Virus record (IMG/VR): IMGVR_UViG_3300021426_000084
Source: a virus
Lineage: Duplodnaviria > Heunggongvirae > Uroviricota > Caudoviricetes
Length of the DNA stretch: 64,000 nucleotides
Direction: 5' to 3' (one strand)
How positions within the stretch are numbered: position 1 is the stretch's first letter; every line of letters starts with the position of its first letter. The notes under the pieces are model-generated. The model was given only the letters and a program-made list of their open reading frames with translations. It did not search any database and had not been told where the DNA came from. The translations under genes and the position numbers were made by a program. Below are positions 17,241-47,800 of the stretch, in pieces.

Positions 17241-17681
17241 TTGGACATCAATATTAACAACTTAAAGAAATATGATACCGAACATGCTAAAGCGGGCGAT
17301 ATGCTGATTTCAGCTTATCGTTCCAGCTATAGCAGCCGTTGGGCCTTTAGTCAACATATCATTAAATCTGTATCTGATAAACGCGGCGACATTACGTTTG
17401 ATAATGGAAAACGGTTTGATCGCCAAGGACGGAGATACGGCAGACAAAGGTACGATACCAGTAATGATGTGCTGCTGGAGGTCAATGAGGATAATGTGAT
17501 AGAGATTAACGCCTATGCAAAACATCAGTCTTTGGTGTTTAAGACACGTAAGGCCCTGGAGGCTCTACTCAAAAATGGATGCAGCCGGTTAGACGATATG
17601 CCAACAGAAAAGATTGAGCAATTCTATGAAGTGGTAAAAGATTTTGCAGGAGGGGAATCAAATGAACTATTGGAGTGCTAA
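17241..17681 (+). CDS. hypothetical protein
   Basis: TTG start after aaggaaaagga. Confidence 0.45.
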   Translation: MDININNLKKYDTEHAKAGDMLISAYRSSYSSRWAFSQHIIKSVSDKRGDITFDNGKRFDRQGRRYGRQRYDTSNDVLLEVNEDNVIEINAYAKHQSLVFKTRKALEALLKNGCSRLDDMPTEKIEQFYEVVKDFAGGESNELLEC

Positions 17682-18420
17682 GCAGCAAAATGCCGAACGT
17701 GCCAGACGGCGCACAGAGGAATTCGAAGCGAACTTTACGCCGTCAATGAACTATGCGTTGGTCAGCACTACCGTATATGGCGGCAAAGACCAGAATGTCA
17801 TCGGCAACCCATTTACCGATATCTGTGAAGAATTTGAAGTGGTACAGATGTCTACGGCCGAAGCCATTTATGAGCTAGGGAATAACAACTGCATTGCTCT
17901 GAATTTCGCGTCATATAAAAATCCGGGCGGCGCGTACCTGAATGGCAGCTGCGCGCAGGAAGAATCTTTGTGTCACGAAAGCTGGTTGTATAACATTTTG
18001 GCTCGATTCCAGAGCTATTATGACTGGAACAAAAAGAATCTGAATCGCGGCTTATATAAAGACCGCGCTCTTTACACGCCGGATGTATATTTTAGCGACG
18101 GCGAAAGAAATGCCATAGCTGACATTCTTACCTGCGCTGCCCCGAATCGCAGTATCATTGTCAAAGGATACACCAACTTTACGGAGGAAGAGAACTATAA
18201 AGTTCTGCATGACCGTATGCTGTTCATGTCCAAGATTTGTTCTTTGAAAAAGAAGGACACACTTATTCTCGGCGCATGGGGATGCGGCGTGTTTAAACAG
18301 GACCCGAAAATTGTGGCAAGACTCATTCGCAATACTACATGGCGCGGCGTAAAGAAAATCGTACTGGCTGTCATTGATAAGCCAACGTATGAAGTATTCA
18401 AGAAAGTTTTTGAGGAATAA
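17662..18420 (+). CDS. PARG-like macrodomain protein (DUF2263/TIGR02452-type ADP-ribose hydrolase fold)
   Basis: NFASYKNPGGAYLNGSCAQEESLCHESWLY matches the bacterial-type PARG signature (G-G..QEE..C(R/H).S.LY); ATG 17662 after gcaggagggg. Confidence 0.6.
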   Translation: MNYWSAKQQNAERARRRTEEFEANFTPSMNYALVSTTVYGGKDQNVIGNPFTDICEEFEVVQMSTAEAIYELGNNNCIALNFASYKNPGGAYLNGSCAQEESLCHESWLYNILARFQSYYDWNKKNLNRGLYKDRALYTPDVYFSDGERNAIADILTCAAPNRSIIVKGYTNFTEEENYKVLHDRMLFMSKICSLKKKDTLILGAWGCGVFKQDPKIVARLIRNTTWRGVKKIVLAVIDKPTYEVFKKVFEE

Positions 18421-18437: not shown

Positions 18438-19706
18438 GTGGCAGATATTCTATTGAAGAGTTTCTTTGAAAAATCGCGGTGGGAATCTGCCATTGATACG
18501 GGCGTAGCTAAACGTCTGGACAGATGCATGCTGAAAGAAATGTGTACTAAAGAAGGGCGCCTTGACCTTTACCATCGCATTCGTGATAACAAGTATTACA
18601 TCCGCCCACCGCATGAAGCACTTATCCCCAAGGATAACGGGGAATTTCGAACGGTTTACGTTAACGAAAATGAAGACCGAATTATCCTGTCCATCATCAA
18701 TGACATGCTGTTCGACCTGTATCCACAGAAAGTACATCCGGCCTGCCGTTCTTACCAGAAAGGTATCGGATGCGGCAAGATAGTGCAGGAGGCATCCAAA
18801 GTCCTGGCCGGTATTCATAGCAGCATCGTAGGCTACAAGGTTGACCTTAGTAAGTATTTCGACTCTGTACCTCGCCAGTATATCGATGAAGTATTTGATG
18901 ATGTCGAAAGTAAATTCGGCGCATCCAAAATCATCGATATCCTGCGTGAGTATTATCATACGGATATGGTATATAATCTGCAGAAAAAGCTGATTGAAAA
19001 ATACTCAAGCTTAAGACAGGGATGTGCCGTGGCCGCATATCTTGCCGATGCCGTTCTTTATGACATTGACGATTGCTTATCCAAAATGCCGGGTATTTAC
19101 TACGTCCGTTACTCCGACGACATTCTTATCCTGGGTGAACAAAACAGAACCGGAAAAGCCTTTGACAAACTCAGTGAACTTCTGACGCAGAAAGAGCTGA
19201 AGCTAAATCCAAAGAAGGTGGAAGTCCTGCAAAAAGACCGCTGGTTTAAGTTCCTGGGTTTCACACTGAAGGAAAATCATATCAGCCTGTCTAAGTCACG
19301 AATTAAGAGATTCCAAAAGGCAATTGATGAGCATACATTCAAAGGCAAGTCAAGGAATGAATACCAGCTGGTCAAGAATGTGTTCCGCGCCTTATATCAG
19401 GGCGAAGATGATTACAGTTGGGGAACTAGCGTATTGCCCATCATTAATGTTCAGAAGGACATCGATACCCTGAATTCTTATGTCATGGATGCTATTCGGG
19501 CGGCCATAACCGGGAAAACCCGTATTGGCGGCCTTGGCGTCACAATAAATCAAAGAGATTGTACTATTGCCAGAGGCAAGGGGCGTAACGTTAAGATGAA
19601 TCGGATAAAAAATCCTGTATTGGAATCTTATCTGAGTATCGGTTGCATGCGTAATGCCCTTCTAACTTCGAAAGAGGCTTATTTGACTTTGGCTATGTCA
19701 ATCTGA
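18438..19706 (+). CDS. reverse transcriptase (free-standing, group-II-intron-like/unclassified lineage)
   Basis: RT motifs 1-7: IPKDNGEFRTV, SYQKGIG, GYKVDLSKYFDSV, LRQGCAVAAYLAD, YYVRYSDDILIL (YxDD), LNPKKVEV, FKFLGF; about 110-aa thumb-like C-terminus; GTG start after aggaggg. Confidence 0.85.
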   Translation: MADILLKSFFEKSRWESAIDTGVAKRLDRCMLKEMCTKEGRLDLYHRIRDNKYYIRPPHEALIPKDNGEFRTVYVNENEDRIILSIINDMLFDLYPQKVHPACRSYQKGIGCGKIVQEASKVLAGIHSSIVGYKVDLSKYFDSVPRQYIDEVFDDVESKFGASKIIDILREYYHTDMVYNLQKKLIEKYSSLRQGCAVAAYLADAVLYDIDDCLSKMPGIYYVRYSDDILILGEQNRTGKAFDKLSELLTQKELKLNPKKVEVLQKDRWFKFLGFTLKENHISLSKSRIKRFQKAIDEHTFKGKSRNEYQLVKNVFRALYQGEDDYSWGTSVLPIINVQKDIDTLNSYVMDAIRAAITGKTRIGGLGVTINQRDCTIARGKGRNVKMNRIKNPVLESYLSIGCMRNALLTSKEAYLTLAMSI

Positions 19707-25372: not shown

Positions 25373-25624
25373 AAAACTCTCATGAGAAGGATAGCCAGAC
25401 TTGTTATTCTTTAACAACGCAAAAGGCCGCCCGAAGGCGGCCAGCTGCGTGTTAGATAATAAAAAAAGAAAATATTTCAATCCACTCCCAGTTTTCATAC
25501 TGGGAGACAACAACCGTGATGGTTGATGCCTTAATAGTAGCAAATATTTTTCTTCTTGTCTAGCAGGAATCCCAAAGGTTACGCTAGAATAGATTTAAGA
25601 AGTGCACAAAAGGAGGAATTAGTT

Positions 25625-25930
25625 ATGAAAAAGATTATTAACGGCAAAAAATATGATACCGAAACAGCCAAAGAACTCGGCAGTAGCTGGAATGGCTTAA
25701 GCCCGACAGACTTCAACTACTGTTCGGAAAAGCTTTACCGGAAAAAGACCGGCGAGTTCTTCTTGTATGGGAAGGGTGGTGCGCGCTCCCAGTACGCAGA
25801 ACAGGTAGGGAATGCCTGGTGCGGTGGCGAAGACATCACTCCCTACACAGAAGACAAGGCTAAACGTTGGTGCGAGAACCACTTATCTGTGGACGAGTAT
25901 GAAGCTATCTTTGGTGAAGTTGAGGAGTAA
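25625..25930 (+). CDS. small protein, paralog of 27320-27610
   Basis: MKKIINGKKYDTETAK... and shared ending EYE(A/S)IFGEVEE; SD aaaaggagg. Confidence 0.55.
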   Translation: MKKIINGKKYDTETAKELGSSWNGLSPTDFNYCSEKLYRKKTGEFFLYGKGGARSQYAEQVGNAWCGGEDITPYTEDKAKRWCENHLSVDEYEAIFGEVEE

Positions 25931-26407
25931 CTGCTTAGTAACTGAAAACGTACTCAGGTATGTAAAAATGTGTAGCAATATGCTAAAGACTCAAGAAATC
26001 CATTGAGTTAGTTCGTGCTGACTTTATAGCAGTCGGAATGGCTGGAAATAAACCAGAGGCGGTTGAAACAGTCCGTCTAACTACGGGATAGCACCCTGAT
26101 GGTAGCCGTTGGACAGTGGTAAATGCGAGAACCAAGCAAAGGCTGGCGAGCCTAAACGCAAAACAATATCACGAAAGGAGAAAGCTACTAGATGTAATCG
26201 GCAGAATATCATAAACAAGATACTGTCGATATGTACCGATGGCTAGTCGGGAATTTACGTCTTCGGAGTATCACACAAACGTTAGTAGCCTGTCTTTCGG
26301 GACGGCGAGAACGGATACGATGAACAAGGAACTACAAATCGTGAGATTGTAGCGATACATCTTGATATAGGCATATTTGTCTATATTTTAAGTAGCAGTA
26401 ACTGCCG

Positions 26408-26953
26408 ATGGGGAACTATAGTTATATGTGCAAGTGCGGACAACCAATCCGCGCAGGTGAAAAGGTTCACCTCATGCATGTTCGCCATGGAGAAGTGTTG
26501 GGTCACGCAGAAGGCGAGTTTGACGGCTATGGCAGTGTCATAGAAAACGAAGGTTTTAATAATGCCTCATTTGATAAGTGGGATGGCGTTAGCAAAAATG
26601 ACCCGAATTGCCATGATGAAATTATGAAATCTCGTTACAACTTCAATGATTCTGAACATGTATGCCAAGAGAAAATGAAAATTTATCAAGACGAACCAGT
26701 CAGCATTGAAGAATATTGCACTGCATTGAGTATTGCAACAAAATGGCCCGATGCAAATATCAAAAGTTTCAACGACGCTTGCGCAGCTTACAGAGAACTG
26801 GAAGATGCACCTAAAGTTACTCCGCAGAGCGGCGTGGCAGCTTATCATAAAGCTTGTTATGATGAAGCCGTAAAGCAGAATGCTGTAGATATTGTTCCAT
26901 CTGAAGCCGACCCGAATCAAGGTTGGGGAGAGCCGCAGAAAAGATTCATGTAA
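26408..26953 (+). CDS. hypothetical Cys/His-rich protein
   Basis: 181-aa ORF. Confidence 0.45.
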   Translation: MGNYSYMCKCGQPIRAGEKVHLMHVRHGEVLGHAEGEFDGYGSVIENEGFNNASFDKWDGVSKNDPNCHDEIMKSRYNFNDSEHVCQEKMKIYQDEPVSIEEYCTALSIATKWPDANIKSFNDACAAYRELEDAPKVTPQSGVAAYHKACYDEAVKQNAVDIVPSEADPNQGWGEPQKRFM

Positions 26954-27043
26954 CGCAAAAGGCCCCCAAAAGGGGGCCAACTGCGTGTTAGGTAACAAAA
27001 AAAGAAAGTGTTTCAATCCACTCCCGGTCAAAGCCAGGAGACA

Positions 27044-27205
27044 AGCCGCCTATTCGGCGGTAAACATGATATTCCAAATTCATAGATTTCTAAGCCGCCT
27101 ATCCGGCGGGAAAAAGGAACCACCAATTTGATAGATTTCTAAGCCACCTACTCGGCGGTAAACAAAACCAAGAAAAATATAAATTTCTAAGCCGCCTATG
27201 CGGCG
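27044..27205. repeat. four direct repeats of a 16-bp GC hairpin (gccRcctaYNcggcgg) at exact 49-bp spacing; copies 2-4 share the 5' flank atttctaa
   Basis: copies at 27044, 27093, 27142 and 27190; AT-rich variable spacers of about 25 bp. Confidence 0.7.
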
Positions 27206-27319
27206 GTGAACTGGAATATCATGATATAATGATATCAGAAATTTTTTTCTTTGTCTAGCAGGAGTCTTAAAGGATATGCTAGAATAAAGAAAGAAGATTG
27301 TGTAAAAGGGGGATTAATT

Positions 27320-27610
27320 ATGAAGAAGATTATTGGTGGCAAAAAGTATGATACGGATACGGCGAAGCGCCTGGCAGGTTACGACAACATCGGAAAGAAA
27401 AATATCGCTTCCTGTACCGATTTTGATTATTGGTGTACTTCGCTATACCGGAAGAAAACCGGTGAGTATTTCATTTACAAGCAAGATACAGCTTGGAATG
27501 ATAGAGAAGAAACCATTACCCCCGCTACGGAGGAAGAAGCCAAGGCGTGGGCTGAAAATTACTTAGACGGCGATGAATATGAGAGTATTTTTGGTGAAGT
27601 AGAAGAATGA
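27320..27610 (+). CDS. small protein, paralog of 25625-25930
   Basis: MKKIIGGKKYDTDTAK...; duplicated upstream region as well. Confidence 0.55.
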   Translation: MKKIIGGKKYDTDTAKRLAGYDNIGKKNIASCTDFDYWCTSLYRKKTGEYFIYKQDTAWNDREETITPATEEEAKAWAENYLDGDEYESIFGEVEE

Positions 27611-27777: not shown

Positions 27778-28281
27778 TTGCAGATAAAAATAGCAGGAAT
27801 TCAGGACGATTCCGTAGTAGACGGTGAGGGCATCCGCATGACCGTGTTCGGGCAGGGATGCCCTCACCATTGTCACGGTTGTCACAATCCCGCCACATGG
27901 AATAGCGCGGGCGGCTATGTAACAACTACAGAAGAAATTCTGGAGCAATACAAGAACAATCCGTTACTGGATGGTATGACATTTAGCGGCGGCGAACCAT
28001 TTATACAGCCATTTGCTTTTATGGAGCTGGCTGATAAGGTGCATGAAATGGGCGGCAATGTGTGGTGCTATACTGGATTTACATTAAACCAGCTTATGCA
28101 GTATGGCTTCGGCCCACATAAGTTGTTACTGGATAAGATAGATGTACTGGTAGATGGCGAATTCATGGAGGAGCTGAAAGACCTTACACTGCAATTCCGT
28201 GGCAGCCGCAATCAGCGCATCTGGAGGCGCCGGGGAGATACCTGGAGCTTATGGATGAAGGAAGGAGTAATGGCAGCATGA
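27778..28281 (+). CDS. nrdG: anaerobic ribonucleotide reductase activating protein (radical SAM)
   Basis: VDGEGIRMTVFGQGCPHHCHGCHN cluster motif; 167 aa. Confidence 0.7.
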   Translation: MQIKIAGIQDDSVVDGEGIRMTVFGQGCPHHCHGCHNPATWNSAGGYVTTTEEILEQYKNNPLLDGMTFSGGEPFIQPFAFMELADKVHEMGGNVWCYTGFTLNQLMQYGFGPHKLLLDKIDVLVDGEFMEELKDLTLQFRGSRNQRIWRRRGDTWSLWMKEGVMAA

Positions 28282-30364: not shown

Positions 30365-31018
30365 ATTTAATATTAACAAACAGAAAACTATGGCAAAGCA
30401 TACCTCGGTTATAAAACGCAATATCATGCGTCCGAGAATGGCCCCGTAATTGATACTGACAAACTGCAGTAGATATGCCTGCAGCGAGTACGTCCTTTCT
30501 TAGCGATAAGAGTAGGGTGATGCGTAAAGTGTAAGCGCATGTATCTTGAGGTTATGTGCATGCAATGCCGAGCGTTAAAGCAGGAACTGATAGGGTTTCA
30601 TAAGTGTATGAGTACAAATGGTGTGCTCCGCTGCCGCCAGTAAAGACTAAAGCGTGATAAACTTTAGGTACACGAGGTATTTATCAAGATGGAACTTTGC
30701 CGTGATGTCTTCAAAAGAGACTATAACTGTCAGTCGCCGTATGAGTAGCCCAAGGCAATGATACAGATCAAGTATGTAGCTTTATAGCAATCTATAATTC
30801 TGAATGACGGGTGAAAGTTGGAAGTCTTAATCTTCTCGGAGCTAGAAAGAGGCAAGAAGCGCGTGTCGACGGGCGCGTTGCTCAGACTTGTCTTCTCCGT
30901 GGCTGAATAAATGCAGAGCATCAAGTTGTGTACAGGGAAACCTGATGTTTTGCCGTAGTTTTGTGTTTGTTAATAACACAACTAAAAATGCGCCCAAGCG
31001 GCGCGGTTACAATTTTGT

Positions 31019-34102: not shown

Positions 34103-34185
34103 GAGGCAGTAGCTTAAATGGCTAGAGCAGACGGGAAAGCAAATGGGGCTTTCTTATGATGGTGGTTCGACTCCTCCCTGCCTCC
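34103..34185 (+). other. tRNA-like element (perfect acceptor pair, D- and T-arms, non-canonical anticodon region)
   Basis: gaggcag...ctgcctc acceptor pair; T-loop ttcgact; the middle 33 nt does not form a standard anticodon arm. Confidence 0.4.
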
Positions 34186-34198
34186 CCTATATCATACA

Positions 34199-34269
34199 TC
34201 CCCAAAGCTCCTCCGGCAGGGCTCGTAAGGCTACGGCCTGCGGCGAAGGTTCGAATCCTTCTTGGGGAT
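34199..34269 (+). other. tRNA-like element (acceptor pair plus T-arm, no canonical D/anticodon arms)
   Basis: tccccaa...ttgggga; gaagg-ttcgaat-ccttc. Confidence 0.35.
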
Positions 34270-35996
34270 ATCATGCTCATAGTCTGGGGGACACCGGCCG
34301 GTAGACAGGTTCGATTCCTGTAATGGGCAAAAACAAAATGCTTTCACGGAAAGTGTGCTCACCGCGAAAGAAGTTTTAGCCGCAGCAGACCGCACACCCT
34401 GGTAAATACGGCAAAAACGATGTTTCCCGATATCAAAGAATCGGGCATCAATGACTGTGGATGCGTATAAATAGACAGTCAGCTTGAGTCACCGTGGACC
34501 CCGGATACCCCAAAAGGAGTATGCCGGCTAACGCCTAGCCGAAATGGCGGGCGGCCCTGTGGGGCGCGATCCACGACACAAAAGCTTTCCTGCAGGCGGT
34601 GGGTTAACCTAGCGTATAGAAGGGGCTCCATTACCCCTGAGACAAAAGTCTCGAAGAGATGACCATTGAAGAAGGGTCTCCATTAACCCTGGCTGTAACC
34701 AGAATAGGCCAACCGTGTTTTCGGGCTCGCATCGTTATGAGCGTCCCGATTACCCGGCGCCAACAGCCGAAGAGATGACCTTTATCGGAGCGTTCGCTAT
34801 CGGACAATTACTGGGGAAGTAAGAACTAAAGGCCACGGTTTTTAGCACCCAGAATAACGACGCGAAGGCATTCCTTTCGGTGGAGGTATACCGAAGAACA
34901 ATATGAAACCTGGGCCGTCCCGATAACGCCATAAAGTACAAATGGTAGCTCGGTCAAACGGTAGCAAGGTTGCACCAAGCGTACCTGGATTACCTTCGCC
35001 TGGACGGACTAAAGTACACGGTCTATCAATTTAAGGGCGATAACAGGCACGAAGGCGATTTAGCCCCGGACAAGGCGAAAAACTGTTTAGTAGGCACCGA
35101 TTACTACTTAATAAGACAGTCGGGAACAGTGAAGACTCACTCTAAACAGGCTAGATGAGCATGGGTATCGCCCATGCCGAAGTTATCGGCCACTTCGCTG
35201 AAGACGACCGATGTGTTTGCGGGACGACCGCAACTGGGAGTGCATCCTCTCAGGATAAACCTGCAGAAGATACCTGTCCGAAACAGGATAGGGAAACCGG
35301 TGGCCAAGGCAATAATCCGGTAAACACCGATATATGTAGGACTCCCCTGCGGGGCGAGTAAGTTCATCGGTGGCCGCAAAAAGAAAACATCTCATAAGCG
35401 AGAGTCCGGTCATGAAAGCTAATCCCTTTCAGGCTCTCCCGATGCTGCTTATCTTTTCGGGCATTAAAAACACCAGACCTCGTAAGCGAAGACAGAGAGG
35501 ACGCTCTCGTTCAAATCGGTGAAGCTTGCCATCACCTATGTACAAAAAGCCTTGCCATGTAGAGCGAGCATGATGCTGCTGTAGAGTAGGTCGGGCATCA
35601 AAGATTTTAGACCTCGTAAGCAAAGACAGAGGAAACGTCCTCGTTCAAATCGGTATGAAGCTTACCCCAGATGACGGGCATTTGCCAAAGCTTGGATGGG
35701 TTAATCCGACATAGCGCTGCTACACTTCGGGCGCTAAATTAATCACACAACTGCTTGTATAAGTGCGTGTATGACTGCCGTGGAGGGGCTGCGCGTGATG
35801 GGAGAGGTTCTGCCTGATAGTGACCAAAAGAGTTCAACTACCGTGAGTCCCACGGGGAAACAACAAGCCCTGTACCTTACGAAACAGGCATGGCGCCGCT
35901 TTATGATAGTTGTTCGGGCGCTAAAAACCTGCACTGGCAACTTCATCTTTCATTGTCAGTAAAAGCGTTTGATAACCCGACCCGAAAGGGTCATAT

Positions 35997-36399
35997 GGGG
36001 CTGTAAAGGTTTCGACAGGATATTGAAGCCGTAAGATTCGCAGGCCGATGGTTATGAAGCCTAACTCATTAACCGCTAAATTCAACTGACGAAGCTGAAT
36101 ATCGTCTCGCTGCCTAATCTGCCTTAACGGTAGATTGGTTAGCCCCTATCGTATCACTAGCTGTGAGCAGGGCGATAGGTTTCAAATAAACACAGCAAAA
36201 CGTCAGGAGGCCCGCTCGACGTAAACAACACGGGGAGTTTTCCTGCTTTCTCAAAAGCAGGTGGTGGAGGTGTAGACCATTGCATCGTTGTTCGGCTGGT
36301 TACACCCTAGAGAATGGCGCTCTTAAAAATGCCTATTGCGATAATGTCTTACAGGTGGATGTATTTTGGACAGGAGTTCGATTCTCCTCAGCTCCACCA
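35997..36399 (+). ncRNA. ssrA: tmRNA (ssrA)
   Basis: 5' ggggctgtaaaggtttcgacagg and 3' ggacaggagttcgattctcctcagctccacca match tmRNA tRNA-like domain consensus; internal tag frame ends ...DEAEYRLAA-TAA. Confidence 0.8.
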
Positions 36400-39860: not shown

Positions 39861-39953
39861 GGGAGATTGGACCTGGATTGGAGCCAGGGCAGCATTTAGC
39901 GCTGCGCAGGGTACGCGCCCTCAACGTAAGTTCGAATCTTACATCTCCCGCCA
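39861..39953 (+). tRNA. type II tRNA (93 nt), anticodon loop ATTTAGC (apparent UUA or UAG; unresolved)
   Basis: acceptor gggagat/atctccc, T-arm gtaag-ttcgaat-cttac, long variable arm, CCA encoded. Confidence 0.5.
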
Positions 39954-40169: not shown

Positions 40170-40246
40170 GCGCCACTTAGCTTAACAGGAAGAGCCTATG
40201 GGTCTAGCTCATAGAGATTCTGGTTCAAATCCAGAGGGGCGCACCA
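40170..40246 (+). tRNA. type I tRNA with apparent CUA anticodon (amber-suppressor-like)
   Basis: acceptor gcgccac/ggggcgc (one mismatch), D gctt/gagc, anticodon stem tatgg/tcata with loop gtCTAgc, T-arm tctgg-ttcaaat-ccaga, ACCA. Confidence 0.5.
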
Positions 40247-40621: not shown

Positions 40622-41285
40622 TAATGGAACAGGCAAGGCGAAAGTCTTGTAAGTTCCTCTCCTTTTCTAAACCAATGAACTACAAAAACAGCGAGTGTCC
40701 TGAACTTCGGTTCAGGCGCCCGTAGAGCCCTTAATGAAGGTTGAGGGTTGTACGGGCGAAAGCCCGACCAAGAATATTACAATAACTGCGCGGGGACAGT
40801 ATAACAGCCCTGTAGTGCTTCGGTGGTCTGTGCACGAAAGAAATACAGCCTTCCACTTATGAGGGGTCGTTGAGAGGTGGGCGCATCGTCGTCGTAGGTT
40901 CGAACCCTACCGTCCCTCATCTATTATGGCAGCGTTGGCTATATCGGGTATCTGGTTGCAAACGGATACTTTGATGAATGGGTGGGCCAATGAAACTGGA
41001 AGAGGTTGCAAACTCCGAAGGGTACGCGGGTTCAACTCCCGCCGCTGTCTCTATCATGTCAGTGTCGGCATAATGGTAATGCCAGGGCCGCAAGCCTGAT
41101 ATGCGGGTTCAACTCCCGCCGCTGACCGTATACGTAAAGTCATGTGACTTGTCATTCTTTCCGAGGGTTATCAAGACTCAAACAAGAAACCCTTCGCAAC
41201 ATTTCAAGCTTTGGCTGGCGTCTGTCTTACGACAGGAACACTGGAGGCAAAGCTAGGGGCAGTTGGCAACAGCTGCTCCGGTACT

Positions 41286-41360
41286 AGGGGTATCGCCAAG
41301 CGGTTAAGGCACCGGGTTTTGATCCCGGCATCTTCAGTTCAAATCTGAATACCCCCGCCA
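41286..41360 (+). tRNA. tRNA-Gln (UUG)
   Basis: anticodon stem ccggg/cccgg with loop ttTTGat; T-arm ttcag-ttcaaat-ctgaa; GCCA end. Confidence 0.6.
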
Positions 41361-41364
41361 TTAT

Positions 41365-41469
41365 GGGAAGCAATCTGGTGGTTTGTAAGTGCAAATGCAG
41401 GTTCGACTCCTGCCACCTCGTAAGAGGTTTGGGGAAAACAAGGGCCCGGTTCGATTCCGGGGCTTCCCG
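41365..41469 (+). other. tRNA-like element with two T-arm-like hairpins inside one acceptor pair
   Basis: gggaagc ... gcagg-ttcgact-cctgc ... cccgg-ttcgatt-ccggg ... gcttccc. Confidence 0.4.
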
Positions 41470-41771
41470 CCTTAATCATGAAGCTAATATGTTGGCGTCA
41501 GCTTTCCTCGTATGATAAAGATACGGATAAGCTATATGGCCGTATATTGGCACCGGTAAAAGCTCGAAACAAAAGTAAGTAGCCGGGGCAAGACCGGGAC
41601 ACCTCCTGGAATTTATTGTGAACATCGAGATTATTATGCATATACTTTTTGTCCAAAAAGCCAGGTGTGGCTTCCGACTCGATGCGGTTAAAAGAGGATG
41701 AAAAGTATAGTGAAGATATCTACAAAGGGCAACCGCTTAGTCGAGCTCCCTGCGAATCGGATATCTATCAT

Positions 41772-41846
41772 GGCTTGGTAGTCTAGTGGTTAGGCAACGG
41801 TCTGCAAAACCGTTTTACGCCGGTTCGATTCCGGCCCAAGCCTCCA
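41772..41846 (+). tRNA. tRNA-Cys (GCA)
   Basis: acceptor ggcttgg/ccaagcc; loop ctGCAaa; CCA. Confidence 0.75.
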
Positions 41847-41852
41847 TATCAT

Positions 41853-41949
41853 GGGAAACGTCATGGTGGCGGAAAAGAGCATTCGGGTTCGATTCCCGAC
41901 GCCCTGCGGGGTCCGTGGTGGTCAGCCTGGTTCGAGTCCAGGGTTTCCT
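41853..41949 (+). other. second tRNA-like element with two T-arm-like hairpins
   Basis: gggaaac ... tcggg-ttcgatt-cccga ... cctgg-ttcgagt-ccagg ... gtttcct. Confidence 0.4.
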
Positions 41950-42289
41950 TTACATTGCCGTAGTAACTCTGCGTATGTATACCTTCCGTTAAAGGCGACT
42001 CAAACGCCGGAAGCCGGGCCTACAGCCCGAGGCAGCGAAATCCCTCCGATTTGAGCGGAGAACCTGACAGCCAGCTCGAAGTTTTAGTAGGGCAGGTTCA
42101 TGTCGAAATGGTAGCGGTGGCGAAGTCCTTGGGGTGGATGAGTAGCCGATATTGGAGTTCCTATATTGGACAGTAAAAGCGGGTTCGATTCCCGACACGC
42201 CGACGGGCGTCCTGGTGGTAAAGTGCCGGTGCGTGCAGGCTTCAAATCCGGATTGAGCCTGTGCAATTCCGGCAGCTCCAAACTATTAT

Positions 42290-42382
42290 GGAGATGTACC
42301 CAAGTGGTTTAAGGGGGCTGCTTTGAAAGCAGATAGGCCGCAGTGATGCGACGCGCGGGTTCGAATCCTGCCATCTCCTCCA
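42290..42382 (+). tRNA. tRNA-Ser (UGA), type II
   Basis: acceptor ggagatg/catctcc; loop ttTGAaa; long variable arm; CCA. Confidence 0.7.
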
Positions 42383-42388
42383 TATTAC

Positions 42389-42476
42389 GGAGAGGTGTCC
42401 GAGTGGCTAAAGGAACCGGTTTCGAAAATCGGCGTACTGAAAAGTACCGTGGGTTCGAATCCCACTCTCTCCGCCA
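42389..42476 (+). tRNA. tRNA-Ser (CGA), type II
   Basis: acceptor ggagagg/tctctcc; loop ttCGAaa; long variable arm; CCA. Confidence 0.7.
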
Positions 42477-42655: not shown

Positions 42656-43543
42656 TTGGAAAACAAAGGTCTTGGGCTCGTAGGTATTTTGGTGGTCATG
42701 GGTATCGCATTAGCCGGTATGCTGATGTGTGTAACTCGTATCGGCCCCGGTTATGCAGGTGTTATTTACAACATGGACGGCGGCATTGAGGATGAAACGC
42801 TTGGTCAGGGCTTCCATATGGTTGCACCGTGGAAGCATGTGAGCGAATATCCGATTTCCACGGAAACGGTCTACTATACAAAAAATTCTGTAGACGGTAA
42901 TGACGATGACAAGGATAAGAAGACCGACAAGTCGGTGAATGTAAATACGAAAGACGGCAAGCAGGTCAATGTGAGCGTGACGTACGCCTACCACATGGAT
43001 CCGGAGAAGCTTCCGACCGTTTTTGCCAAATTCCGTGGCCAGGACATCAAGTCTATTGAATCCGGTTACATGAAGAATGCTATGTACGAAGCGCTCAACA
43101 ATGTTACCAGCCAGTATAGCTTGATGGAACTTGTTGGCGATAAGCGCCCGGAAATCAATCAGAAGATTTTCGAAGCGTTTAAGGCTGACTTAGAAGAATG
43201 CGGCATTGTAATTGAAACTTTCAACTTGTCCGACGTAGTTCCGGATGATGCAACGGCGACAGCCATTCAGAATGTTGTAAATGCTCAGAACGCTTTGATG
43301 CAGGCGAAAATCGAGAAGGAGCAGGCGGAAGTAGAAGCCGAAAAGGCTCGTGTTACTGCCAAAGGTAAAGCAGACGCAGCTCTTATCGAAGCTGAAGGCC
43401 AGGCACAGGCTAACGCAAAACTGCAGCAGTCCCTGACTCCGGGAGTACTCCAGCAGAATGCAATCTCTAAGTGGGACGGAAAGCTCCCGCAGATTAGCGG
43501 TCAGAACGGCGGTTTCATTCTTGGAGCCGACTTCTTGAAGTAA
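42656..43543 (+). CDS. SPFH/band-7 (prohibitin/HflKC-like) membrane protein
   Basis: N-terminal TM helix, IGPGYAGVIY...GQGFHMVAPW SPFH core, Ala/Glu-rich coiled-coil C-terminus. Confidence 0.75.
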   Translation: MENKGLGLVGILVVMGIALAGMLMCVTRIGPGYAGVIYNMDGGIEDETLGQGFHMVAPWKHVSEYPISTETVYYTKNSVDGNDDDKDKKTDKSVNVNTKDGKQVNVSVTYAYHMDPEKLPTVFAKFRGQDIKSIESGYMKNAMYEALNNVTSQYSLMELVGDKRPEINQKIFEAFKADLEECGIVIETFNLSDVVPDDATATAIQNVVNAQNALMQAKIEKEQAEVEAEKARVTAKGKADAALIEAEGQAQANAKLQQSLTPGVLQQNAISKWDGKLPQISGQNGGFILGADFLK

Positions 43544-44856: not shown

Positions 44857-45609
44857 GTGTTTAAGTCTGGAGATAAGGTATGCCATATAGCATACGGTAT
44901 TGGTGAAATCGTATCGGTTGAACATACGACAAACGGAACGATTCGTTATGAAGTGAATTTTCGACGGTATCCGCAAAAGCTTATCACGGTAGTTGGTGAT
45001 GATGACATGCACAAGTTAGATGCATCGGAAAAAAGTGTAAGAAGCGGCCAATCGGAAACAGATAAGGAGAAAAAGGAAAATATCCGGCAGCTTGTCGATA
45101 ATATTTTTGAAATTTATGACAATGATTTTGCTAAGATATTGAAGAAAAGTTTAGACAATGCGACAACAGATAAGAAGGAGAACACTGTAATGGCAAATGA
45201 ACGAAAACTGACAATGGATAATAACGGCAATGTAATCGGCGGCGCAATCCTTGGCGGCCCCACCCCGGAAATCACCCCTACGTTTGGAACTGTATCGACA
45301 AGTCGTAAGTCAGAACCGGATAACGTAGCCCGGCATCGCAAGATTGTCATGGGGCTTAACGAGCTTTATGCCCGCAAAAATGCTGATTATGGCGACAGTT
45401 TCCATGATACCTATATTGAAGAAGGCATGGCCATGGCCCGCATTCGCCTGTCAGATAAGCTCAATCGTTTTAAGAGCTTGACTCGCAACAATCAGCAGCA
45501 GGTGAAGGATGAAAGCATCCGCGACACCCTTCTTGATTTGGCTAACTATGCCATCATGACGGTTATCGAAATGGATAGAGAAGCTGACGTGAAAGTGAAG
45601 GCGGTATAA
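44857..45609 (+). CDS. hypothetical protein, possible MazG-like/DUF1599-like C-terminal domain
   Basis: GTG start; KNADYGDSF...RIRLSDKLNRFKSL motif. Confidence 0.4.
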   Translation: MFKSGDKVCHIAYGIGEIVSVEHTTNGTIRYEVNFRRYPQKLITVVGDDDMHKLDASEKSVRSGQSETDKEKKENIRQLVDNIFEIYDNDFAKILKKSLDNATTDKKENTVMANERKLTMDNNGNVIGGAILGGPTPEITPTFGTVSTSRKSEPDNVARHRKIVMGLNELYARKNADYGDSFHDTYIEEGMAMARIRLSDKLNRFKSLTRNNQQQVKDESIRDTLLDLANYAIMTVIEMDREADVKVKAV

Positions 45610-47068: not shown

Positions 47069-47800
47069 ATGTTTAATGCAGGAGATATGATTGATGGCCA
47101 TACTATCTGCTTAAAGGCATTAGTGGGCAGCCATAATTACAATCTCAACACACCGGAATCCGACAGGGATTACAAATACTTCGTGTGGCCGACGTTCAGT
47201 GACCTGTACGACAATAAAATGTATCACAAAGAAGTGGTCACGGATGCCGAGGACTATACTGTCCATGATGTTCGTAAGCTCCCGATGCTTCTTTGGAAAG
47301 CCAATCTGAATTTTATTGAGATTCTGTATTCCAAGGAACTTACCGGTGATTCAAGCTTGCTGGAGTATCTGGAAGAACATAAAGAAGAACTGGCAACAAT
47401 GAATTTGCCAGGCTTATATATGGCTGCCATGAACATGTCTCTTGATAAAGAAAAGCTTATGACAAAGGATTCGCCGGCGCGGCATGACGCCATCGAAAAA
47501 TATGGTTACGATCCGAAAAGCGCCTGTCATGCATTGAGAGTCGTTGACTTTTTGAGAAAGTACCATGTGTTCCGGGATATGTCTGACGCATTCTGGTATC
47601 CAACGGGTTCATTGGATTACGCTGGCATCATGGATATCAAGCAAGGAAAGTTGTCTCTTCAGGATTTCAAAGACTGCCTGTATGATATCAGAGAAACAGC
47701 TAAATCCTTTAAATACAGTTTTTCCGCGCCAAAGGATGAACTCGCTTATAATGATTTTTGCATAGTCCTGAAGCAGAAAGTGAGACAGAGACTTTGCTAA
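47069..47800 (+). CDS. Pol-beta-superfamily nucleotidyltransferase
   Basis: LVGSHNYNLNTPESDRDYKYFV matches hG[GS]-x(9-13)-D-x-[DE]h; 243 aa with helical C-terminal half. Confidence 0.55.
   Translation: MFNAGDMIDGHTICLKALVGSHNYNLNTPESDRDYKYFVWPTFSDLYDNKMYHKEVVTDAEDYTVHDVRKLPMLLWKANLNFIEILYSKELTGDSSLLEYLEEHKEELATMNLPGLYMAAMNMSLDKEKLMTKDSPARHDAIEKYGYDPKSACHALRVVDFLRKYHVFRDMSDAFWYPTGSLDYAGIMDIKQGKLSLQDFKDCLYDIRETAKSFKYSFSAPKDELAYNDFCIVLKQKVRQRLC

Follow-up and report, generated by a model that had tools for sequence, protein, structure and literature searches.

What is encoded by a gene that holds two T-arm hairpins within a single acceptor pair is the question raised by a transfer RNA (tRNA) array in 64,000 nt of DNA from a virus of the Caudoviricetes (IMG/VR record IMGVR_UViG_3300021426_000084; the whole stretch is called the window below). 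A preliminary description of the window had pointed to two such units, at 41365-41469 (E1) and 41853-41949 (E2), had placed them directly after genuine tRNAs, and had offered tRNAs with an inserted extra arm, permuted or intron-containing tRNAs, or tRNA mimics as possible explanations. We found the quoted letters at these positions, with E1 lying 4 nt past tRNA-Gln and E2 lying 6 nt past tRNA-Cys, and we recovered a third unit (E3) outside the coordinates covered by that description. We propose that E1, E2 and E3 are paralogous, selectively maintained, non-decoding mimics that derive from tRNA-Ser and act as decoys, a statement to which, taken as a whole, we assign a probability of roughly 45%. 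The part that concerns identity, namely that these are conserved non-decoding tRNA-like genes derived from tRNA-Ser, we consider highly probable; the decoy role, as the least certain step, is doubtful.

As in a canonical tRNA, the acceptor stem of E1 and E2 stacks onto a T-stem of 5 bp whose loop fits UUCRANY (T-arm 2), and a second T-arm (T-arm 1) is located 43-48 nt upstream inside the same acceptor pair (Table 1). The pattern GGTTCRANTCC-N20-50-GGTTCRANTCC occurs three times in the window, compared to 0.00 occurrences expected from 100 shuffles. The linker of 23-25 nt at the 5'-side of T-arm 1 has no conserved pairing that could form a D-arm stem of 3-4 bp in E1 or E2. Among E1 orthologues the linker varies freely apart from GGUGG and UGUAAGUG, and a candidate hairpin in the E1 linker (UUUG-UAAGUG-CAAA) was dropped after it proved not to be preserved in the related contigs L268 or L273. 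The nucleotide at position -1 is U in both E1 and E2.

We explored the possibility that E1 and E2 are two overlapping or adjacent tRNAs, an intron-interrupted tRNA or a circularly permuted tRNA gene, given that two T-arm consensus sequences are found within about 50 nt. ARAGORN failed to call either unit in its default, intron, ps95 or ps90 modes, and the relaxed runs (intron, mitochondrial, ps70-95 and transfer-messenger RNA (tmRNA) modes) produced only inconsistent, overlapping calls, at ps<=85. An Rfam search of 4 kb at E<=10 returned no family at E1 or E2, compared to 50-65 bits for the neighbouring tRNAs (the gathering score of the tRNA family, RF00005, is 29 bits). Standard tools thus did not resolve the units into ordinary adjacent tRNAs, and two adjacent or overlapping tRNAs were ruled out as candidates, since a unit of 97-104 nt and one acceptor pairing leaves no room for both. 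Deleting any one segment of 8-55 nt generated about 6000 variants, from which we obtained 27 calls: Thr(cgt) or Gly(gcc) for E1 and Ser(cga) for E2, with no call common to the two. Every circular permutation of E1 and E2 was likewise uncalled. The size of the units, the deletion scan and the rotation scan led us to reject the adjacent, intron-containing and permuted readings, which retain next to no probability. The idea of an inserted extra arm held only in part: T-arm 1 replaces the anticodon arm and is not an additional arm, and the true insert is a G-rich segment of 13-16 nt. The suggestion of tRNA mimics agrees with our results, in that the acceptor/T-arm helix and a D-loop-like GG are kept while the anticodon loop, the D-stem and an encoded CCA are missing.

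E1 and E2 can be aligned over their full length, and the alignment revealed double compensatory changes in all four helices: one pair in the acceptor (G6-C to A6-U), two in T-arm 1, two in the hairpin and one in T-arm 2 (C-G to U-A). Paired cells accounted for 94.9% in this alignment, compared to at most 69% when the partners were slid, and RNAalifold independently found the acceptor stem, T-arm 1 and T-arm 2. We built a covariance model (R1) from E1 and E2; after the E1 and E2 orthologues, the next-best matches to R1 were E3 and five tRNA-Ser genes (30-37.6 bits) located in the window, L145, L264, L275 and L266. No tRNA-Leu in the same loci was matched at E<=1. R1, when aligned to tRNA-Ser, places T-arm 1 at the anticodon arm and matches the tetraloop hairpin to the long variable arm and the linker to the D-loop, such that GUGGUUUGUAAG of E1 corresponds to GUGGUUUAAG of tRNA-Ser(UGA). 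The hairpin in the variable-arm position consists of 4-5 bp and a tetraloop and is followed by 13-16 unpaired nt, compared to 1-2 in class II tRNA-Ser. This segment between the hairpin and T-arm 2 (UUGGGGAAAACAAGGG in E1 and CCGUGGUGGUCAG in E2) has no tRNA counterpart, and it carries the G-rich motif UGGUGG in E2 and E3 or UUGGGG in E1. Of the normal tRNAs, the two tRNA-Ser genes at 42290-42476 come closest to E1 and E2, and they likely represent the ancestral type.

In the third paralogue, E3, T-arm 1, the hairpin and the CCUGGUGGU module almost match those of E2, and another stem stands in for T-arm 2. The stand-in stem covaries in the E3 orthologues of L127, L139, L268 and L275, where it reads GCCGG/CCGGC, GCUGG/CCAGC or GUUGG/CCAAC through compensatory changes; the variable-arm hairpin of the L275 orthologue has 8 bp instead of 5. 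A 14-mer scan aimed at E3 orthologues was unspecific.

The position of T-arm 1 raises the alternative that E1 and E2 do decode, as class II tRNA-Ser(CGA) isoacceptors of odd body, possibly nuclease-resistant, whose anticodon arm resembles a T-arm only as a consequence of the UUCGANN loop. The serine CGA anticodon loop UUCGAAA does resemble the T-loop UUCGANY, the alignment of R1 with tRNA-Ser is end-to-end, and default ARAGORN labels an E2 orthologue with a 1-nt linker deletion (in L127, L139 and L140) as a tRNA-Ser(cga) of 97 nt. The discriminator of E1 is G73 in three of four contigs, and anticodon-loop changes in phage tRNAs are known to evade anticodon nucleases (PMC10264068). We evaluated how well T-arm 1 fits either arm, using position-weight matrices derived from 1670 distinct phage tRNAs. 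Scored as a T-arm, T-arm 1 of E1, E2 and E3 reached 16-19 bits (real T-arms, 14.0 +/- 8.8), compared to -1.4 to +0.5 bits when scored as an anticodon arm (real ones, 7.5 +/- 4.6); the anticodon arm of the phage's genuine tRNA-Ser(CGA) gave 3.4 and 8.0. T-arm 1 has the G53-C61-type closing pair and the UUCRANY loop of the T-loop consensus, and both T-loops of E1 and E2 conform to this consensus at each position. Position 37 would be C in E1 and U in E2, compared to a purine in 98% of the 1670 phage tRNAs. The loop of the L275 orthologue of E3 is UUCAAGU, which is compatible with a T-loop and would shift the ‘anticodon’ from CGA to CAA. The matrix scores, the pyrimidine at position 37 and the changed loop in L275 make decoding by E1 and E2 unlikely. 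The absence of a D-stem, the 13-16 surplus nt before T-arm 2, the silence of the Rfam tRNA model at E<=10 and the variable discriminator (G or A in E1, U in E2) further argue against an odd tRNA-Ser. So does the unencoded CCA, which is missing from all nine non-canonical units that we found in the window but present in 12 of the 13 genes called by ARAGORN (11 of 12 tRNAs, and the tmRNA). On balance, we find it quite unlikely that E1 and E2 are decoding tRNA-Ser genes.

Relatives of the locus were located by an exact-motif scan (L127) and via the neighbouring SPFH-domain gene (42656-43543). E2 was 98-100% identical in L127, L139, L268, L273 and L264, and E1 was 100% identical in L127 and 91% identical in L268 and L273. 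For comparison, identity was 97-100% for tRNA-Cys, 73-93% for the spacers and 79-82% for the SPFH coding sequence. E1 orthologues differed only in the 5' linker and at a few sites within the 3' segment; their acceptor stem, hairpin and both T-arms were invariant. The tRNA preceding E1 is Gln, Leu or a CUA-suppressor depending on the relative, and a tRNA-Pro is inserted before tRNA-Cys in some; with the flanking tRNAs exchanged between relatives in this manner, E1 and E2 behave as separate cassettes. Judged from these sequence comparisons, E1 and E2 are under selection. We evaluated the opposing view that they are functionless, either decaying pseudogenes or recombination scars of tRNA genes. 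Phage tRNA arrays are prone to recombination, several degenerate tRNA-like units are found within the window, and 58 of 126 pattern hits elsewhere consist of a tRNA plus a duplicated 3' part. The conservation of E2, which equals that of tRNA-Cys and exceeds that of spacers and coding DNA, largely refutes this view, as do the maintenance of four helices by compensatory changes, the wholly consensus T-loops and the persistence of the elements while adjacent tRNAs are swapped; a functionless origin is thus highly improbable.

The long spacers that follow E1 (41470-41771) and E2 (41950-42152) are 73-89% conserved in relatives with long invariant runs, and they may be further non-coding RNAs; the first could also encode a 35-amino-acid peptide from 41478. 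The main rival to our proposal is that E1 and E2 are processing punctuation only, that is, minimal substrates of RNase P and RNase Z through which the long array transcript would be cut and these two segments freed, the excised tRNA-like pieces themselves being functionless. The perfect 7-bp acceptor with its 5-bp T-arm helix, the U at -1 and the lack of CCA fit RNase Z substrates, a conserved spacer of 200-300 nt follows each element, and the region is also punctuated by other tRNA-like units that lack an anticodon. However, the acceptor/T-arm helix alone would be enough for processing. Punctuation leaves unexplained why T-arm 1, the hairpin and the G-rich segment are almost completely conserved while the 5' linker of E1 varies, and why the inner module is kept in three paralogues. 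Most spacers are, moreover, already flanked by canonical tRNAs. We regard a role in punctuation only as unlikely.

Returning to the proposal of tRNA-Ser-derived mimics, the E units would be co-transcribed with the tRNA array and cut by RNase P at G1. We propose an RNase Z-type cut at the 3'-end because the units have no CCA, which is possibly added afterwards. The original GG derived from the D-loop would dock on T-loop 2 in the fashion of a tRNA, and the added G-rich segment of each unit would dock on T-loop 1. T-arm 1, the capped hairpin and the GG segment might in this way form a second, circularly permuted tRNA ‘top half’ in the order known from YrlA. The order T-arm 1, hairpin, G-rich segment is common to the three paralogues, and it forms the best-conserved block in E2 and E3. 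The predicted product is a compact RNA that resembles tRNA(Ser) in shape and carries a closed, non-decoding loop instead of an anticodon. The most likely role of such a mimic would be to occupy a factor that binds tRNA or tRNA-Ser, being neither usable nor cleavable in the anticodon loop, and candidate targets include a host anticodon nuclease, a 3'-end-modifying toxin, and a processing or modification enzyme. VapC nucleases cleave tRNA-Ser(NGA) inside the anticodon, and escape from nucleases of this kind has been proposed for phage tRNAs (PMC10264068). A preference for tRNA-Ser is known for MenT3, which belongs to the AbiEii-related DUF1814 nucleotidyltransferase family (PMC7450476, PMC11541572, PMC11162799).

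Several observations weigh against our proposal. RNAalifold found a competing 4-bp helix between GGUG of the linker and CNCC just 3' of T-arm 1, which excludes the tetraloop hairpin in E1 and E2; we keep it only as a possible alternative because it is impossible in E3 and competes with the hairpin that all three paralogues have. E1 and E2 represent approximately one ancient split, so that the compensatory changes between them amount to few independent events. The minimum-free-energy z-scores were unremarkable (-2.56 for E1 and -0.57 for E2). The anticodon-arm score of T-arm 1 is just about 1.6 standard deviations under the mean of real anticodon arms, and the tRNA-Ser(cga) label given to E2 orthologues points in the same direction. 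The nucleotides of the putative contact at the second elbow are invariant and so offer no covariation. The unencoded CCA speaks somewhat against roles that need a CCA end, and the functional steps of expression, processing, modification and binding are each deduced from sequence. In the neighbourhoods of 39 loci we found no conserved partner protein beside double T-arm elements, and the only protein families in common were homing endonucleases, ribonucleotide reductase and a phosphatase-like protein (identified by eye from the sequence), each at 3-4 loci.

We further analyzed double T-arm units in other viruses. A generic double T-arm pattern was present in at least 120 viral contigs, with many of the matches consisting of a tRNA and then a duplicated 3' part. 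With a descriptor that requires a perfect 7-bp acceptor enclosing two T-arms, we detected 60 distinct units in the 2.8 Mb of viral loci that were fetched, compared to none in reversed controls. In a first classification, pairing was complete at the three free T-arm 1 stem positions in 29 of 42 units, compared to about 5% expected. Among the 46 units whose T-arm 1 lacks its own acceptor, 35 shared their locus with a same-strand tRNA (median distance, 7 nt), and 11 were labelled as tRNAs by ARAGORN, mostly Ser or Leu. Gene finders sometimes label double T-arm units as tRNA-Ser(CGA) or tRNA-Leu(CAA), since a T-loop is read as one of these anticodons. Double T-arm mimics are probably counted in automated tallies of phage tRNAs, which such mislabelled units would inflate.

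The units in other viruses follow several layouts. One family has the acceptor GRGARAG and the linker CACCUUGG, in which both the acceptor and a GACG-loop hairpin visibly covary. This family was exposed by the pattern GGTTCRANTCC...TGGTGGT, whose matches in viral contigs were mostly tRNA-tRNA junctions and glycine-rich coding repeats. A second family has the acceptor AGUCAGG/CCUGACU, and in another a D-arm and an anticodon-like arm precede T-arm 1, a GNRA hairpin, UAUGGUA and T-arm 2. A double T-arm family in L121 (1855-1950), L123, L124 and L131, which are contigs without tRNAs, has its acceptor prolonged into a terminal stem of about 17 bp; the L121 unit is located about 75 nt downstream of a Proteo-phage-1 RNA (RF03044). 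A double T-arm unit of the unrelated contig L118 adjoins a GOLLD RNA and a tmRNA.

A search of 100 unrelated loci with R1 gave nothing above 35 bits, suggesting that the E family is lineage-specific. Species genomes of GTDB contained 10 pattern matches, none of them E-like, and blastn in distant mode against GenBank phages matched the flanking tRNAs only. Rfam returned a single weak tRNA match on 19 other loci with double T-arm units, and a literature search on tRNA-like RNAs with a double or second T-arm found no description. The double T-arm architecture appears to be undescribed so far and recurs widely in phages. Its recurrence in dozens of unrelated viral contigs and in several layouts suggests repeated selection for the design. 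On a broader view, phage arrays would widely encode ‘double-elbow’ mimics of several origins, each with two T-arms and two D-loop-like GG motifs inside one acceptor stem. E1-E3 would then be tRNA-Ser-derived decoys, uncleavable or unusable, that counter tRNA-targeting immunity or capture an elbow-binding factor, with anticodon nucleases or 3'-end nucleotidyltransferase toxins that prefer tRNA-Ser as the putative targets. We think it improbable that this wider statement holds in full.

Table 1. Positions of E1, E2 and E3, their parts, and the tRNA and tRNA-like units named in the text (window coordinates unless a contig is given).
Feature	Position	Strand	Sequence, size or basis
E1	41365..41469	+	104-nt tRNA-like gene plus discriminator; sequence, acceptor/T-arm scan, model R1 (100.8 bits)
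E1 acceptor	41365-41371 / 41462-41468	+	GGGAAGC / GCTTCCC, 7 bp
E1 D-loop-like linker	41372-41396	+	includes UCUGGUGGUUUGUAAG
E1 T-arm 1	41397-41413	+	GCAGG-TTCGACT-CCTGC
E1 GNRA-tetraloop hairpin	41415-41428	+	ACCUC-GUAA-GAGGU
E1 G-rich segment	41429-41444	+	UUGGGGAAAACAAGGG
E1 T-arm 2	41445-41461	+	CCCGG-TTCGATT-CCGGG; abuts 3' acceptor strand
E1 discriminator	41469	+	G; no encoded CCA
E2	41853..41950	+	97-nt tRNA-like gene plus discriminator; sequence, model R1 (109.4 bits)
E2 acceptor	41853-41859 / 41943-41949	+	GGGAAAC / GTTTCCT, 7 bp
E2 D-loop-like linker	41860-41882	+	CAUGGUGGCGGAAAAGAG
E2 T-arm 1	41883-41899	+	TCGGG-TTCGATT-CCCGA
E2 UNCG-tetraloop hairpin	41901-41912	+	GCCC-UGCG-GGGU
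E2 G-rich segment	41913-41925	+	CCGUGGUGGUCAG
E2 T-arm 2	41926-41942	+	CCTGG-TTCGAGT-CCAGG; 3' acceptor strand directly after
E2 discriminator	41950	+	U; no encoded CCA
E3	42154..42280	+	model R1 (36.4 bits), end-to-end match with 35-nt insertion
E3 acceptor		+	GGAGUU/AGCUCC, 6 bp
E3 linker		+	includes UUGG
E3 T-arm 1	42179-42195	+	
E3 hairpin	42197-42210	+	ACGCC-GACG-GGCGU, then CCUGGUGGUAAAGU
E3 stem standing in for T-arm 2	42225-42229 / 42269-42273	+	GCCGG/CCGGC; loop contains 35-nt hairpin insertion
tRNA-Gln(UUG)	41286..41360	+	canonical, CCA encoded; ARAGORN, Rfam tRNA (56 bits)
tRNA-Cys(GCA)	41772..41846	+	canonical, CCA encoded; ARAGORN, Rfam tRNA (63.8 bits)
tRNA-Ser(UGA)	42290-42382	+	canonical class II; ARAGORN, Rfam; R1 37.6 bits, end-to-end
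tRNA-Ser(CGA)	42389-42476	+	canonical class II; ARAGORN, Rfam; R1 26 bits, end-to-end
Six further tRNA-like units	34103-34184, 34199-34268, 34277-34328, 40863-40917, 40928-41049, 41058-41126	+	52 to 122 nt, acceptor plus T-arm
E2 orthologue called by ARAGORN, L127	447-543	-	
E2 orthologue called by ARAGORN, L139	9357-9453	+	

The window covers a tRNA-rich region of an apparently large phage genome, in which ARAGORN called 12 tRNAs and a tmRNA, and Rfam additionally found a ROOL RNA, a RAGATH-18 RNA and two weak tRNA hits. Our acceptor/T-arm scan recovered at least nine non-canonical tRNA-like units on the plus strand, several of them without a 7-nt anticodon loop; the units at 41058 and 40863 are 89-99% conserved in relatives. 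The motif YNTGGTGG has 17 sites in the 64 kb, four of which fall inside the stretch of about 900 nt from E1 to E3, and it is also found after the acceptor strand in single-T-arm mini units of relatives. A recurring spacer between units, CCA-TAT(C/T)AT(G), lies right before the next G1 (e.g. 41358-41364, 41844-41852 and 42380-42388) and accounts for the U at -1 of most array units. Promoter and terminator scans were uninformative.

The tmRNA (35997-36399) has the tag DEAEYRLAA, and two tRNAs of the suppressor type are located at 39861-39953 and 40170-40246 (anticodons UUA and CUA). The tmRNA and these tRNAs are suggestive of recoding of stop codons, and open reading frames called in the window with table 11 may therefore be truncated. 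Upstream of the tmRNA is an element of about 60 nt in two copies (35470-35530 and 35605-35670), with the sequence GACCTCGTAAGC.AAGACAGAG...CTCGTTCAAATCGGT..GAAGCTT and a T-loop-like TTCAAAT inside. The ROOL RNA (30380-30963; RF03087, 216 bits, full length) is located between tRNA-Asn and tRNA-Trp. At 27043-27237 (also 26260-26331) we observed four tandem units with a 49-nt period, each combining a conserved stretch (about 24-28 nt; AAGCCGCCTAT.CGGCGGTAAAC) with a variable one of about 21-25 nt. One of these units matches Rfam CRISPR-DR4 on the minus strand, and the repeats may therefore be a mini CRISPR-like array; the RAGATH-18 RNA is found about 800 nt upstream of them. A cassette with a hairpin-containing leader and the start of a small open reading frame (MKKIINGKKYDT...) is duplicated at 25416-25671 and 26952-27366, the copies being 78-87% identical and 1.5-1.7 kb apart.

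Among the protein-coding genes, a reverse transcriptase (18438-19703; RVT_1, E=6.7e-25) lies beside a microbial PARG/macro-domain protein (17644-18417). A search within 14-24 kb revealed no template/variable repeat pair, which makes a classical diversity-generating retroelement improbable at this locus. The tRNA region is flanked by a weak match to an RlaP-type (RNA-repair-associated) nucleotidyltransferase (47069-47797), a radical-SAM protein with Fer4_12 and Radical_SAM domains (27778-28278) and a DUF1599 ‘nucleotide modification associated’ protein (44857-45606).

Neither E1 nor E2 has the full set of features that define a tRNA, a Y RNA or a tmRNA. Class II tRNA-Ser (RF00005) shares with them the 7-bp acceptor, the abutting consensus T-arm, the D-loop-like GUGG...AAG and a hairpin in the position of the long variable arm, and E1 and E2 are spaced like tRNAs inside a tRNA array. 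They differ from it in having a T-arm sequence in the anticodon-arm position, a pyrimidine at 37, 13-16 added nt, and neither D-stem nor CCA; the Rfam tRNA model misses them, and so does ARAGORN in the case of the window copies.

YrlA is a non-decoding tRNA mimic with the permuted order T-arm, capped acceptor-like stem and D-type loop (Chen et al. 2014, PMC4201824). It is also found in phages, some YrlA RNAs are substrates of RNase P as well as of the CCA-adding enzyme, and YrlA ends in a Ro60-binding stem with a GNCGAA motif, with rsr within 4 kb (PMC4201824). By inspection only, the inner module of E1-E3 has the same order and a single-stranded G-rich segment without a D-stem. E1 and E2 differ from YrlA by a true acceptor stem at the end, a second, outer T-arm, the lack of GNCGAA and their location in a tRNA array. 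The tRNA-like domain of tmRNA resembles E1 and E2 in its acceptor, its T-arm, a stem-less D-loop analogue with GG and the absence of an anticodon arm. Their pair 3:70 is G-C and not the G3:U70 of tmRNA, they have no mRNA-like region or pseudoknots, and they measure about 100 nt, compared to about 360-400 nt. The 5' linker AAUCUGG is also similar to the D-loop analogue in the tRNA-like domain of E. coli tmRNA.

These likenesses bear on the possibility that E1 and E2 are a known type of tRNA-like riboregulator, either a YrlA-type Ro60 tether or a tmRNA-like rescue RNA working with SmpB. The YrlA-like order of the inner module (PMC4201824), the similarity of the linker AAUCUGG to tmRNA and the phage's own tmRNA favor this possibility. 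The Rfam Y RNA and tmRNA models are silent at E<=10, and the RNAs end in an acceptor stem and not in a Ro-binding stem, with the Ro-binding motif GNCGAAN0-1G absent from both. There was no TROVE domain among the 20 larger window proteins scanned, the neighbouring gene being the SPFH one. The G3:U70 pair, a tag reading frame and pseudoknots are all missing, and ARAGORN gave no tmRNA call at E1 or E2 other than implausible permuted ones in its relaxed -m mode. Hence we judge a known riboregulator very improbable.

Species 1 and species 2 RNAs of T4 (rnaC and rnaD) are, like the proposed products of E1 and E2, stable non-tRNA RNAs inside a phage tRNA cluster, and rnaC ends in the consensus T-arm CCGGG-UUCGAAU-CCCGG followed by an acceptor-like strand. 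With a single T-arm, 139 nt and a different interior, rnaC has no detectable sequence relation to E1 or E2. The mascRNA and the tRNA-like structures at viral 3'-ends are tRNA-shaped and engage enzymes that process or charge tRNAs, but do not decode; they come from eukaryotes or RNA viruses, and have a single T-arm equivalent and another topology and context. The sole mascRNA match in our analysis (Rfam, 19 bits) was on another unit, at 41058. If the RNAs of E1-E3 are made and stable, they would represent a new design among the bacterial and phage tRNA mimics typified by tmRNA, YrlA and T4 species 1 RNA, with a T-arm replacing the anticodon arm, and they would offer a test case for whether large phages deploy tRNA look-alikes, besides spare tRNAs, in contending for the tRNA pool of the host.

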